Assembly: GCA_964532905.1 (NCBI GenBank)
Contig: CAZHJM010000001.1
Span: 121,593 to 185,592, forward strand
Source of the DNA: an uncultured Holosporaceae bacterium
Lineage (GTDB): Bacteria > Pseudomonadota > Alphaproteobacteria > UBA3830
Direction of reading: 5' to 3'
DNA: 64,000 bases
The notes under the pieces are model-generated. The model ran no database searches. It was not told the DNA's origin and was given only the letters and a program-made list of their open reading frames with translations. A program made the translations under genes and the position numbers. Numbering within the stretch: position 1 is the stretch's first letter; every line of letters starts with the position of its first letter. Positions 2,000-62,440 of this stretch are shown here, piece after piece.

Positions 2000-2310
2000 G
2001 ATTCTCAACACTCACTCCATTCGCTTAGAATGACGACAATGACGTGAAAAAAAGTGTACTCAGAATGACGATGAGACGTTGTAAGGACTCATGCCACTTA
2101 TAATTACAGGAAAATTGTAGCCCATGGCGCTACCATTGTCTAGTGTCACTGTAATGATTCTTTCTCTTTTTCGTCATTGCGAGGAGCGAAGTGACGTGGC
2201 AATCTATGATGATTTCAGAGCAATTTCAGAAAAGATAAGAGAAAGAATAATATATTCTCAACACTCACTCCGTTCGCTTAGAATGACGACAATGGTTAGA
2301 ATGAAGTAAG
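2000..2310. repeat. dispersed modular repeat cluster 1 (R-S-T-Q-R modules)
   Basis: A 42-bp direct repeat, gattctcaacactcactcc[a/g]ttcgcttagaatgacgacaatg, occurs at 2000-2044 and 2253-2295. It flanks cgtcattgcgaggagcgaagtgacgtggcaatctat (2172-2207). The same modules recur in 11 other intergenic sites. Confidence 0.85.
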
Positions 2311-2457
2311 GGGTGAATTGATAATTGTTTAGGATGATTATATTATTTAATAAATCAAGGTAAAAGTTTTTAAAAACAATAAAAAAATCGGTTAAAAGCA
2401 GGAATTTATGATAATTCGATGAAATAATATCAAAAAAATCTATAAATCGATTCTTTC

Positions 2458-3807
2458 CTATTGCAAAATTTTTGTTAATAATCGTATATCTTCTTCTAAA
2501 CTTGCATCATCTCGCATAGTTTCTGTTATTTTTCTAACAGCATGTAGTACTGTTGTATGATCTTTTCCTCCAAAATTTTTGCCTATCTCTGGTAAAGACA
2601 TAGTGGTAAGTTTTTTGGCTAAGTACATGGCAACTTGCCGTGGTAAAGCTATTTGTCGAGAGCGTTTTGATGAAAACATATCACTAAATTTTATTGAATA
2701 ATGAGCAGCTACTTTCTTTTGAATCTCTTCAATTGTTACACGTCTTTCACTTGAACGTAACAGATCTGATAATACCTCTCTGGCACTGTCGATAGTAACT
2801 TCTCTGCCAATAAATACCGCATTTGCAATAATCCGGTTTAATGCTCCTTCTAGTTCTCTTATATTAGATGTAACCTTATGTGCAATAAATTCTAAAACTT
2901 TATCTGGAATAATAACGGAGGTATTTGCAGCTTTTGATTGTAAAATTCCCAATCTTAATTCATATGTAGTCGGATGAATATCTGCAACTAGTCCCCAGCC
3001 TAGACGAGATTTCAATCGCTCTTCCATTCCATCTAAATCTGATGGTGATTTATCTGCGGATACTATTACTTGTCTATTATTATCTACTAATGCATTGAAA
3101 GTATGAAAAAATTCTTCTTGTGTAGAGTCTTTCCCACATATAAATTGAATATCATCTATCATTAAGACGTCAACAGATCTAAATTGCTCTTTAAAAGCCA
3201 TAGTATCTTTATATCTTACAGAACGAATAAATTGATACATAAATTTTTCTGCAGACATATAAGCAATTGTTCTTTTTGGATTTTTTGCTTTGATACTCCA
3301 AGCTATAGCATGCATCAGGTGTGTTTTACCTAAACCAACACCCCCATATAAAAATAAAGGATTAAAAACAACGTCATCAGATTCTGCAACTCTTAAGGCT
3401 GCGGCGTAAGCTAGTTCATTAGGTTTTCCAACAACAAATTTATCGAATGTTAAATTAGGATCTAGAGGTATACCAAATGTATCATCATCTGAAGTCGTAG
3501 TTTCTTCATTTATTGAATTAGTCTGTATATTAGATGGTTTGTTTGATTCTAACACCTTTAATTCTACAGATTTTACTTGCGGATATTTTTCAACGCATAT
3601 CTGTATAATTTGTGTGAGATAGTTATTTGTCACCCAATCTTTAAAAAAAACACTCGGAGCTATTAAATACAACGTATTTTCTTCTAACTTTTCGGGGTGC
3701 AACGGAGAAATTAAATTATTAATTACAGCATCCCCAAAAATATTACGAAGATCTTCACAAACTGAACTCCAAATATCATCTAATATCCGATGATCTACGT
3801 TTGCCAT
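2458..3807 (-). CDS. dnaA: chromosomal replication initiator DnaA
   Basis: 449 aa. Walker A GGVGLGKTHLMHAIA, the box VII/sensor region, and the C-terminal DNA-binding helix (GGKDHTTVLHAVRKI). Confidence 0.97.
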   Translation of the reverse strand: MANVDHRILDDIWSSVCEDLRNIFGDAVINNLISPLHPEKLEENTLYLIAPSVFFKDWVTNNYLTQIIQICVEKYPQVKSVELKVLESNKPSNIQTNSINEETTTSDDDTFGIPLDPNLTFDKFVVGKPNELAYAAALRVAESDDVVFNPLFLYGGVGLGKTHLMHAIAWSIKAKNPKRTIAYMSAEKFMYQFIRSVRYKDTMAFKEQFRSVDVLMIDDIQFICGKDSTQEEFFHTFNALVDNNRQVIVSADKSPSDLDGMEERLKSRLGWGLVADIHPTTYELRLGILQSKAANTSVIIPDKVLEFIAHKVTSNIRELEGALNRIIANAVFIGREVTIDSAREVLSDLLRSSERRVTIEEIQKKVAAHYSIKFSDMFSSKRSRQIALPRQVAMYLAKKLTTMSLPEIGKNFGGKDHTTVLHAVRKITETMRDDASLEEDIRLLTKILQ

Positions 3808-3810
3808 AAT

Positions 3811-4071
3811 CTATTTTGTTGTTGAAGCTTTCAATAACTTATTTAATCTAGAAATTTTCCTGCTAGCCGTATTTTTATTTAGTACTCCTCTAGAAACTCC
3901 TTTACTTAATTCTGATTGTGCAGCGATAAAATTCGTTTCAGCCTCTTTACTGCCAATAGAGGCAACAAATTTTTTAATAAAAGTTCTTATACGACTAATT
4001 CTGTCTTTATTTCTAATAGTTCTAACTTTTGTTTGCCTTATTCTTTTCAAAGCAGATTTATGATCAGCCAT
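3811..4071 (-). CDS. rpsT: 30S ribosomal protein S20
   Basis: 86 aa and basic. MADHKSALKRIRQTKVRTIRNK is a typical S20 N-terminus. It lies immediately upstream of dnaA, as in many alphaproteobacteria. Confidence 0.92.
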   Translation of the reverse strand: MADHKSALKRIRQTKVRTIRNKDRISRIRTFIKKFVASIGSKEAETNFIAAQSELSKGVSRGVLNKNTASRKISRLNKLLKASTTK

Positions 4072-4112
4072 TTTACTCCTATAATTTAATTTAATAATGC
4101 CAAAAAGATATA

Positions 4113-4817
4113 CTAACCTCTAATATAAAAATTATCAAAACATTTTGATATATTCTCTATTAAAAGTTTATCAGAAAATATCGGATGTTCAATAATATTT
4201 TCATTTTTATCTCTACATTTTTGTAAAGCCACGGTTTTAACACCCATGGAAGCGAGTTCTTTTAAGGTTTTTACAATAGATTCCTGCGGAATACTTTCGT
4301 GTAATGTCATTCTAACTTCAAATTGTACACCAGAAGCTATTACCATTTTTAAGCTTTCTAATGCTAATTCACCACTACCTTCAATATTTGTAATAAGTGC
4401 ATAATCTTTAAATTCATGCTTAATATCAAAACCTATCCAATCTAAAAGCGGTAAAATTTTTGCTAATTTATCAGGATAAGCTCCAGCTGTATGTATGCCA
4501 ATTTTATATCCAATATTTTTAACATCATTAATAGCTGAGAACAATGCATTTCCCTGAACTAATGGTTCTCCACCACTAAATACTACAGCTTCCACAAAAT
4601 TTTTTCTTGTATTCAGTAATCTTAAAACATCTTCCCAAGGTAATGATTCTGTAGGAGCCATTGTTTGCAAATGCGGATTATGACAATATATACATCGCCA
4701 AGGACAACCTTGAAGAAATATTACACTTGCAATATACCCTGGATAATCAACTGTTGTAAGTGAAACTATTCCTCCAATTAAAAGTTGATCAGTCATTCGA
4801 CTAATTACAACCTCCAC
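4113..4817 (-). CDS. nrdG: anaerobic ribonucleoside-triphosphate reductase activating protein (radical SAM)
   Basis: 234 aa. It has the CPWRCIYCHN (CxxxCxxC) radical-SAM cluster motif and GGEP, and sits downstream of nrdD. Confidence 0.88.
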   Translation of the reverse strand: MEVVISRMTDQLLIGGIVSLTTVDYPGYIASVIFLQGCPWRCIYCHNPHLQTMAPTESLPWEDVLRLLNTRKNFVEAVVFSGGEPLVQGNALFSAINDVKNIGYKIGIHTAGAYPDKLAKILPLLDWIGFDIKHEFKDYALITNIEGSGELALESLKMVIASGVQFEVRMTLHESIPQESIVKTLKELASMGVKTVALQKCRDKNENIIEHPIFSDKLLIENISKCFDNFYIRG

Positions 4818-61256: not shown

Positions 61257-61418
61257 ATGAATGTTAATGCAAAAAAAGCTATCAAGAAATATGAAAAAGA
61301 GCCAAAAATGAAAGAAACTGAAATAGAAAAAGCAATCAAAAAAAATGATGAAGAATGGGTAAAAAGAATGTTGTTACTAACATTAACAATGATTCTTGCC
61401 CTTCTTGGTTTAGATTAA
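61257..61418 (+). CDS. possible small tail-anchored membrane protein (53 aa), hand-translated
   Basis: MNVNAKKAIKKYEKEPKMKETEIEKAIKKNDEEWVKRMLLLTLTMILALLGLD. It is below the ORF-track cutoff and is followed by a 9-bp hairpin. Confidence 0.2.
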   Translation: MNVNAKKAIKKYEKEPKMKETEIEKAIKKNDEEWVKRMLLLTLTMILALLGLD

Positions 61419-61427
61419 CAAATTGCT

Positions 61428-61450
61428 GGGTGTGTAATTTCTACACACCC
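61428..61450. terminator. perfect 9-bp hairpin between the small ORF and tRNA-Lys
   Basis: gggtgtgta-atttc-tacacaccc with no T-run on either side. Its function is uncertain. Confidence 0.3.
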
Positions 61451-61480
61451 AATCAATAAAGGAGGCAATTTTGTATGAGA

Positions 61481-61556
61481 TGGTGGGCGCCAGAGGACTC
61501 GAACCTCTGACCCGCTGATTAAGAGTCAGCTGCTCTACCAACTGAGCTAGGCGCCC
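61481..61556 (-). tRNA. tRNA-Lys (anticodon CTT)
   Basis: The reverse complement folds as acceptor gggcgcc/ggcgccc, anticodon stem gctga/tcagc with loop ctCTTaa, and T-arm agagg-ttcgagt-cctct. CCA is encoded. Confidence 0.9.
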
Positions 61557-61920
61557 TAACCATTTAAACATATATCATTAGTGAGTTTTTTGTCTAGATG
61601 CTTTTATAATTATTAACATTTTCTTAATTTTTCAATTTAGTCTATGAATTAATAATTACTATGAAATTAAAGATTCTCATTTTAATAAAATTTAAAATGT
61701 TTAAAATTAATTTTCATAGTGTTTTCAAATAATTAGCCCATAAATTAACAAGAATTCCAGAATTTAAGCTTTCTATTTCAATAAATATAGCCTTTAATCA
61801 GGAGTTAAAAGTACTTTTTCACAAAATTAAGTTCTATAAACCTTAATTCTTAAAATTGAAAATATAATCAAGCAATAGCTTAATTTAAGACTTTAAAACT
61901 GCTATTTATTACATACTTTT

Positions 61921-62440
61921 CGTCATTGTGGAGAGCATTTTCCTTTTCCAGCGTCATTGTGAGGATTTTCTCTATTTCATAATCACACGGAGACATATAG
62001 TCTCCGCCTTTCCCACTTATTATGTGGCAATCCATAACAATACTGAAATGTAGGCAGAAGTATTAAGTAAAGGTAAATTCTTACGTTCGTTACTCTCTCT
62101 CAGAATGACGCCAATGGCGTGTTGATACGAATGGTTACACTAAGTATGCTGCTATAGATGTTTCCTTACGTCATTACATGGAGCGTTTTTCCATTCCGTC
62201 ATTACGAGGAATGAAGTGACGTGGTAATCCATTATCAGCTTAAAGAATATAGAGTACACAAACAGATTCTCACACTCACTACGTTCGTTCAGAATGACGC
62301 AAGTAGCGTGAGGACAGTGCTTATAGCGTCGTTATGAGAGTTCTTCTCATTTTCGTCATTGAGGAAAACATTCTCCCTCTTAGCATCATTACACGAAGCT
62401 ATATAGGCTTCGCCTCTTACACTTTTCGTCATTATAAAGT
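61921..62440. repeat. repeat cluster 12 (mixed modules, + orientation)
   Basis: Contains cacggagacatatagtctccgcctttcccacttattatgtggcaatccataa, cgtcattacgaggaatgaagtgacgtggtaatcc, agattctcacactcactacgttcgttcagaatgacg and agcatcattacacgaagctatataggcttcgcctcttacac. Confidence 0.85.

Follow-up and report, generated by a model that had tools for sequence, protein, structure and literature searches.

Mosaic arrays of intergenic hairpin repeats in an uncultured Holosporaceae bacterium

A family of short repeats occupies twelve intergenic places in a 64,000-nucleotide stretch of DNA from an uncultured Holosporaceae bacterium. This stretch, the window in what follows, is C1:121593-185592 of the metagenome-assembled genome G000 (1.307 Mb, 70 contigs, 29.8% G+C). 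The repeats are made of recurring modules, named D, P, Q and R, which an initial annotation, made from the letters of the window, had described as a G+C-richer dispersed family. Sequence inspection and a parse of nhmmer matches find the modules at all twelve sites, each of which lies between open reading frames (ORFs) and is richer in G+C (0.37-0.45) than its 300-bp flanks (0.23-0.34). Their share of the window, first put at 6-7%, is real but amounts to 5.9% (3,796 bp summed). The peptides noticed in spurious ORFs do recur: VMILSLFRHC is encoded at 2151 and 8853, and RHCEE(R/Q)SD at 2172, 37992 and, on the minus strand, 8991 and 59150. Strings of the RHCEERSDVAI type derive from the Q module. 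Assigned from nhmmer matches and, where stated, from the sequence itself or from families of repeats, the sites are as follows.

1999..2310, plus strand: site 1, R 1999-2035, pyrimidine box and Q 2172-2207, R 2254-2288; downstream of dnaA (also from the sequence)
7483..7687, plus strand: site 2, one Q-R unit, Q 7486-7523 and R 7571-7604; tRNA-Arg 130 bp away
8745..9059, minus strand: site 3, hairpin part, P on the plus strand 8773-8813, then on the minus strand R 8882-8917, Q 8955-8991, P 8995-9032 (also from the sequence)
9060..9135, minus strand: site 3, D mini-element of 76 nt with terminal inverted repeats GATATCTTGCGTAA / TTTCGCAAGAACTC (from the sequence and the nhmmer D model)
18040..18179, minus strand: site 4, degenerate hairpin heads and R 18144-18179
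19149..19439, plus strand: site 5, R 19149-19184, then a tandem array; tRNA-Gln 47 bp away (also from repeat families D2, D3)
24696..25038, plus strand: site 6, D-left 24696-24755, P 24797-24837, Q 24894-24930, R 24970-25000, D-right end ...ACTTTCACAAGATATC (also from the sequence)
26174..26436, plus strand: site 7, D-left 26174-26234, P 26250-26290, R 26338-26373, D-right ...ACTTTCCCAAGATATC (also from the sequence)
31905..32212, minus strand: site 8, R 31955-31990, Q 32028-32065, P 32097-32134, Q 32182-32211, all minus
37796..38340, plus strand: site 9, P 37850-37890, P 37921-37959, Q 37992-38029, R 38066-38101, P 38228-38266
44991..45128, minus strand: site 10, R 44992-45025 and a degenerate Q-like tail 45056-45084 (also from repeat family D8)
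58933..59275, minus strand: site 11, two tandem Q-R units, R 59032-59067, Q 59114-59150, R 59183-59218, Q 59241-59274
61921..62440, plus strand: site 12, P 61980-62017, R 62077-62110, Q 62197-62233, R 62264-62299, P 62383-62423; tRNA-Lys 365 bp away

The family is not a matter of a few local duplications. Iterated nhmmer searches of the whole genome, with R, Q and P models that do not overlap, count 95 copies of R, 74 of Q and 43 of P at 77 loci, and the D family adds 11 copies. The commonest 12-mer of this 29.8% G+C genome, CGTCATTCTGAG (64 copies, 50% G+C), belongs to these repeats, which cover about 1.1-1.3% of the DNA. ORFs of 100 aa or more take up 83% of the genome, yet 210 of the 212 P, Q and R copies are intergenic. 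The remaining two fall inside one 101-aa ORF, itself probably created by the repeat. Orientation relative to genes is unbiased (13 same, 11 opposite), and spacers between convergent genes are enriched among the loci, 24 of 61 as against 12% of all spacers. All copy counts are underestimates because the repeats break the assembly: 16 of the 77 loci reach the end of a contig, and a repeat array of contig C3 contains a scaffold gap of 10 N at about 37900.

The variable order and orientation that had been described are found from one locus to the next, not within a locus, where 132 of 135 adjacent pairs of modules are co-oriented and follow the order D>P>Q>R. Nor are the modules the independent, freely ordered pieces that they first seemed. 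Q is followed by R 55 times, at gaps mostly of 36-46 nt (range 20-49), so that Q and R make one unit. This unit is about 110 nt long; its outer ends read CGTCATT...AATGACG and it is bordered by a weak pyrimidine-rich box upstream and a purine-rich box downstream. P stands before Q. D, a separate 76-nt element with 16-nt terminal inverted repeats (GAGTTCTTGCGAAAGT / ACTTTCGCAAGATATC), precedes P, Q or R in the same orientation in 10 of its 11 copies; longer forms, of 216-344 nt, enclose P, Q and R between D ends (24696-25038, 26174-26436), and 67 of the 77 hairpin loci have no D end. Within arrays the units run head-to-tail. Partial units are common, with heads or tails of the R hairpin repeated at a period of about 30 nt, for example at 19150-19340; in this array of site 5 an R tail (..GTTCGCTCAGAATGACG) and a purine box return every 30-31 nt. 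Site 4 is the inverted partner of site 5, with a 269-aa ORF between them (inverted repeats I6, I12, I16).

P, Q and R', the reverse complement of R, prove to be three versions of one hairpin, 33-55 nt long, whose edges are constant: CGTC-ATTxy-GA-[upper stem and loop]-GTG-y'x'AAT-C. Each has a 5-bp lower stem, ATTxy/y'x'AAT, a GA/GTG internal loop and an upper stem and loop; with the lower stems ATTGC, ATTAC and ATTCT the loops are of 18-20 nt. Within the ~110-nt unit Q and R' face each other across a spacer of 36-46 nt. The lower stem is kept by compensatory changes. In Q it reads ATTGC/GCAAT in 25 copies, ATTAC/GTAAT in 19 and ATCAC/GTGAT in 4; in R it reads ATTCT/AGAAT in 61. For R' (68 distinct copies) 96.1% of the cells are paired, as against 90.4% after shuffling, and 63 cells as against 17 carry a double change; for Q (54 copies) pairing is 96.8% against 91.5%, with 39 double-change cells against 15.5. 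None of 500 shuffles reaches the observed values in either case, measures which kinship among copies can inflate. Controls in which the R' stem was slid are only 19-50% paired. In P the inner 7-bp hairpin, CGAAGCC-ATATA-GGCTTCG, varies in the same way, by paired changes such as GGAGAC/GTCTCC.

With nearest-neighbour energies for DNA, the inner hairpin of P folds with z -2.4 and the D mini-element with z -3.6 (9060-9135, the sole complete short D copy of the window: -10.3 kcal/mol, z -3.64). Of two Q-R units folded, one (59032-59150, in site 11) makes a long DNA hairpin with z -3.3 to -3.5, and the other (37992-38101) gives z -0.35 and -0.92. The RNAalifold consensus favours such a long hairpin, in which Q pairs with R. 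We reject it as the selected structure: in essentially all copies the lower stems of Q and of R pair locally, where they covary, and do not match each other, hence it is the local hairpins that are the conserved structure. On the strand that runs from CGTC to AATC, G-T wobbles outnumber A-C mismatches (55 against 21), and the two hairpins of a unit, Q and R', are on opposite strands. This points to folding of single-stranded DNA rather than of one RNA – a hint, not a proof. No run of T follows the hairpins, which are therefore not intrinsic terminators. Readings of the GA/GTG loop, by eye, as a K-turn or a hammerhead do not fit the register fixed by covariation. At gathering score the only Rfam matches of the window are four tRNAs, and 37700-38450 has none even at E<=5. 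What remains is a modular, dispersed, intergenic family with inverted ends and no coding capacity.

The sister species G009 (whole assembly 1.026 Mb, aligned over 878 kb at 92.9% identity) allows us to follow the family over time. Within colinear blocks, 25 of the 63 insertions or deletions of at least 60 bp that separate the two genomes involve it. Many arrays stand at orthologous sites with differing content. In G009 the counterpart of site 5 is 915 bp longer and reads R Q R P Q R Q R, and that of site 9 reads Q R P Q; the architecture of site 12 is identical in both species, as is that of site 6, a complete composite. One clean difference of 110 nt equals a single R-Q period, and its junction falls at the same position of two R hairpins, which indicates unequal recombination or slippage. 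Arrays are thus shown to lengthen and shorten as adjacent hairpins recombine or slip. Larger changes are also seen: G009 carries a 506-nt composite, D::P-R-Q-R, where G000 has an empty site, and some 270 nt with R-Q in G000 correspond to 19 nt in G009. The borders of these composite differences lie in A+T-rich DNA, with unconvincing target-site duplications. Dispersed Q-R copies in G000 are at most 89% identical (median 70.5%), tandem neighbours 95-99%, and 17 of the 55 Q-R units have a counterpart in G009 at 90% identity or more. Between the two species identity is 93.7% in coding DNA, 92.7% in other intergenic DNA, 90.0% in hairpin cores and 84.6% in array spacers. In our reading the family dispersed long ago, before the two species diverged, and has since decayed and recombined locally, without strong purifying selection by the host.

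Several features of the surroundings deserve mention. A segment of 792 bp, 26146-26938, which holds site 7 and the start of a 192-aa ORF (26526-27104), is absent from G009, where its flanks are 8 bp apart. Three blocks framed by repeats – 7620-8666, the stretch from the tRNA to site 3; 18119-19184, with the 269-aa ORF (18277-19086); and 38293-45004, with a 2120-aa ORF – are 83-87% identical to G009, as against 92-95% for the rest of the window. Genes flanking repeats have a median amino-acid identity of 93.6%, as against 94.9% for all other genes (p = 0.009) and 94.4% for genes bordering long repeat-free spacers, a difference that is not significant (p = 0.10). All four tRNA genes of the window (7817-8067, 19486-19559, 61481-61556) lie near a repeat cluster, tRNA-Thr being 678 bp from site 3. 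Directly upstream of site 1 is dnaA (2458-3807, minus strand; Bac_DnaA, DnaA_N and DnaA_C domains in Pfam); the GC skew changes sign near 2-3 kb, and the replication origin may be close by. Repeat density is uneven: contig C2 (152 kb, 33.5% G+C) has one locus, and contigs C1, C3 and C9 have 10-18 per 100 kb at 29-30.5% G+C. G000 is 0.28 Mb larger than G009, and for 317 of its 1108 ORFs G009 offers no counterpart; the bin may in part consist of accessory DNA or have another origin.

A generic pattern, CGTCATTNNGAG-N8-30-GTGNNAATC, matches 71 times in G000 and 74 times in G009, and 0-1 times in 36 other genomes (10 congeners, 13 of the family, 13 of the order); the reversed control pattern has no match in any genome searched. 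BLAST with the Q-R consensus finds 24 hairpins, all of Q type, in G010, of the same genus, and none in nine other congeners. At C104:1533-1762 of G010 three Q-type hairpins stand about 98 nt apart, with no R partner. Only G000 and its sister species hold the full Q-R unit. Wider sampling of the alphaproteobacteria finds the pattern in 21 of 301 genomes, from 17 genera, and the count of G000 is the highest; the upper stem varies from one of these carriers to another but always pairs. The R-type frame, CGTCATTCTGAG-[stem-loop]-CGTGAGAATC, also occurs in Alistipes, Atribacter, Dehalococcoidia, Holosporaceae, Clostridia and others. By our own arithmetic that scan should yield about 57 matches by chance; most of its matches carry a CGT and an inner palindrome that the pattern does not specify, and that chance would not be expected to supply. 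In replicons of Methylosinus, Methylocystis and Halomonas, palindromes of about 80 nt have one arm that matches the Q hairpin at 91-94% identity. A dRS3-type hairpin, CGTCATTCCCGCG..GCGGGAATCC, is found in Azospirillum, Cupriavidus, Legionella and sphingomonads, and at 40 or more places per record in Neisseria gonorrhoeae. By these matches the hairpin frame is spread patchily across many phyla. In the literature, the sequence strings of the repeats retrieved primers and vectors only, and a search for a second strain through an identical protein returned only the source contig of the metagenome-assembled genome itself, 100% identical.

What, then, moved these hairpins? Y1_Tnp/RAYT (PF01797), the transposase family of repetitive extragenic palindromes (REPs), has no match in G000, in G009 or in the hairpin-rich genomes G121, G163, G166 and G138. 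IS110/Piv is absent from G000 and G009, and does not correlate with hairpin-rich genomes. PDDEXK_2 is present in both species (in G000 as an Rpn-like nuclease/transposase gene at C4:7654-8586, with a fragment copy on C17); it also occurs in hairpin-free relatives and is absent from hairpin-rich genomes, and we reject it. No gene has more than two copies, the assembly containing five paralogue pairs only. At C8:17032-20870 two fragments resemble, by eye, an IS1-type transposase with a zinc finger, and have no Pfam match. No parent insertion sequence (IS) of D was recognised, in work that did not search directly for DDE families, for IS copies with terminal inverted repeats or for D ends beside transposase genes. 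Around 114 hairpin loci of other phyla no recurrent neighbour gene emerges, the best cluster covering 8 loci. One locus of a distant alphaproteobacterium (L119, G039:C235:1-2034) carries a Y1 transposase gene framed by copies of AATTAGGTATACTGTCCCC(A/T)GAATT, beside a hairpin doublet, CGTCATCCTGAA..TTCAGGATCC / GGATTCTGAA..TTCAGAATGAC. The doublet is of the CGTCAT type, but the repeat that frames the gene (TAGGTATACTGTCCCC) is a different one, and we draw no link.

The reading that we favour, and hold to be probable, is that these are non-coding, non-autonomous palindromic repeats acting at the level of DNA, of the kind of REPs and bacterial interspersed mosaic elements (BIMEs), of REPINs (REP doublets forming hairpins) and of neisserial intergenic mosaic elements (NIMEs). 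The family would have entered the lineage of G000 and its sister species and spread there to about 80 intergenic sites; Q-type hairpins are found in the congener G010 as well. Spread would have depended on an activity acting in trans and reading the hairpin on single-stranded DNA, one other than Y1/RAYT, IS110 or PDDEXK_2 and perhaps no longer present. Dispersal would since have stopped, and any effect on neighbouring genes would be secondary. Certain observations sit badly with this account. No mobilising enzyme was found among Y1/RAYT, IS110, PDDEXK_2 and the multi-copy genes examined. There is no clean insertion of a single unit with a target-site duplication, and the candidates, TAATA and AATT(C), may have arisen by chance where the DNA is so rich in A+T. 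Taken alone, the Q and R' hairpins are as weak as shuffled sequence by nearest-neighbour energies (z about 0), which leaves the case to a covariation that kinship may inflate. That cores are kept better than array spacers would fit a constraint at the level of the host, or gene conversion, too. Finally, in a metagenome-assembled genome of 70 contigs with 16 loci at contig ends, a transposase may have been collapsed or left unbinned.

It could be argued that the hairpin is kept for the use of the cell and not for mobility. The REPs and BIMEs of Escherichia coli are bound by gyrase, IHF or Pol I, or stabilise the 3' ends of mRNAs. Structural or regulatory sites of this sort would account for the compensatory changes that maintain the stems, for the conservation of cores over array spacers (90.0% vs 84.6%), for the constant syntenic position of many arrays and for the enrichment in convergent spacers (24 of 61 vs 12%). 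They would account poorly for nine congeneric species and 26 genomes of the family and order that lack the family or hold a stray match or two, for cores that evolve faster than ordinary intergenic DNA (90.0% vs 92.7% identity), for hairpins that show no orientation preference relative to genes and no T-run behind them, or for arrays whose content differs freely between sister species. We consider a host function of this kind unlikely. Classical MITEs, transposable elements of the miniature inverted-repeat type that arise as deletion derivatives of an IS, share its terminal inverted repeats and are moved by its DDE transposase, are a less probable answer still, and one that fits D only in part. 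D does have terminal inverted repeats of 16 nt and exists in a 76-nt mini form as well as in forms of 216-344 nt bearing P, Q or R; the Q-R unit too has inverted ends, CGTCATT/AATGACG, with weak pyrimidine and purine boxes; the 506-nt D composite, flanked by AATC/AATTC, stands in G009 and is missing from G000; and TAATA on either side of 26174-26436 is a possible 5-bp duplication. Yet nothing comparable is seen at 9060-9135 or 24696-25038, and the other D copies have no target-site duplication; a D end is lacking at 67 of 77 hairpin loci; the assembly has five paralogue pairs only, one of them IS1-like by eye, and no gene in more than two copies; and hairpin edges common to many phyla are unlike the inverted repeats of one IS.

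Membership of the RPE (Rickettsia palindromic element) families, which the peptide strings had suggested, seems to us very improbable. The likeness is there: RPEs are palindromic units of 100-150 bp in small, A+T-rich alphaproteobacterial genomes, have no known transposase and give recurring peptides in spurious ORFs, here the RHCEERSDVAI-like strings of the Q hairpin, in a unit of about 110 nt. RPEs are, however, defined by frequent in-frame insertion into protein genes (reviewed in PMC10969869), and none of the 212 copies lies in a credible gene. It is this habit of insertion, not a comparison of sequences, that sets the present family apart. Moreover, the Q hairpin is 94% identical in Halomonas and Methylosinus, and so is no signature specific to Rickettsia. 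The broader kinship first proposed, with REPs, MITEs and RPEs as a kind, stands: the elements are modular, G+C-richer, dispersed and intergenic, with inverted ends and without coding capacity.

Returning to palindromic repeats that act as DNA, how such hairpins spread is an old question, for NIMEs and RPEs alike. The CGTCATT...AATC edges are common to many phyla and to dRS3, yet Y1/RAYT, IS110 and PDDEXK_2 do not track them. We put forward only tentatively, and on balance doubt, that the hairpin frame is the site in cis of one widespread system acting in trans – a nuclease or recombinase of single-stranded DNA hairpins, or a housekeeping enzyme. Such a system would unite the neisserial dRS3 and NIMEs, the palindromes of Methylosinus and Azospirillum, the present elements and the similar hairpins of Bacteroidota, Chloroflexota, Atribacterota and other groups. 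The genus itself offers a natural experiment for finding the factor, with three hairpin-bearing and nine hairpin-free species. Taken by itself, this is one more family of intergenic palindromic repeats, and an ordinary one. It is nevertheless the main source of small structural differences between the two sister species (25 of 63), and it matters for binning and annotation because the assembly is broken at 16 loci and spurious ORFs carry recurring peptides.

Among known systems, REPs, BIMEs and REPINs share with the present family short imperfect palindromes in high copy number, strictly extragenic, inverted doublets that make a longer hairpin, and mosaics with other motifs. They differ in three respects. 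The 5' edge of a REP is a GTAG-type tetranucleotide, and here it is CGTC. Array units run head-to-tail here, instead of alternating. No Y1/RAYT gene is found in G000, in G009 or in several other hairpin-rich genomes. The palindromes of about 80 nt of Methylosinus, Methylocystis and Halomonas, CGTCATTGCGAGGAGCGAAGCGACGAAGCAATCCAG...CTGGATTGCTTCGC..CTCGCAATGACG, a family for which we found no name in the literature searched, are a second such system. Their left arm is 91-94% identical to Q, and they have the same outer ends and the same doublet design. Their arms, however, are complementary to each other and make one long perfect hairpin, whereas the Q (ATTGC/GCAAT) and R (ATTCT/AGAAT) of the present family each form a local stem and do not match one another at those positions.

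The closest analogue in architecture and behaviour is the neisserial mosaic element, dRS3-RS-dRS3, in which dRS3 hairpins, ATTCCC-N8-GGGAAT, flank repeat sequence (RS) units of 50-150 bp; one meningococcal genome holds 611 RS elements (PMC1797815). At one locus of N. gonorrhoeae (L195) we find CGTC-ATTCCCGCGCAGGCGGGAAT-CC, about 65 nt of RS, then GATTCCCGTTTTCACGGCAATGACG: an inverted pair of hairpins with outer ends CGTCATT/AATGACG and ATT...AAT stems, which is the Q-spacer-R design. In both systems G+C-rich hairpins alternate with A+T-richer spacers, syntenic arrays differ in the number of units between close relatives (PMC1797815), and no transposase is known. The differences are plain enough. 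Upper stems and loops are other sequences, and the present family has a GA/GTG internal loop. Its stems, ATTGC, ATTAC or ATTCT, do not follow the ATTCCC consensus of dRS3; G000 has about 200 copies, as against 611 RS elements, in the fixed order D>P>Q>R instead of among many RS families. Greater divergence of the flanking genes is not significant here against the proper control (p = 0.10), and G000 has no dRS3-targeting phage or IS110/Piv-type gene. The host, too, is an alphaproteobacterium, and NIMEs are restricted to Neisseria; a comparison of 2007 stated that such arrays had not been met with elsewhere (PMC1797815). The hairpin arrays described here, which we file as NIME-like, show that mosaics of this design occur outside Neisseria, and are a further example of a kind known from Neisseria and E. 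coli.

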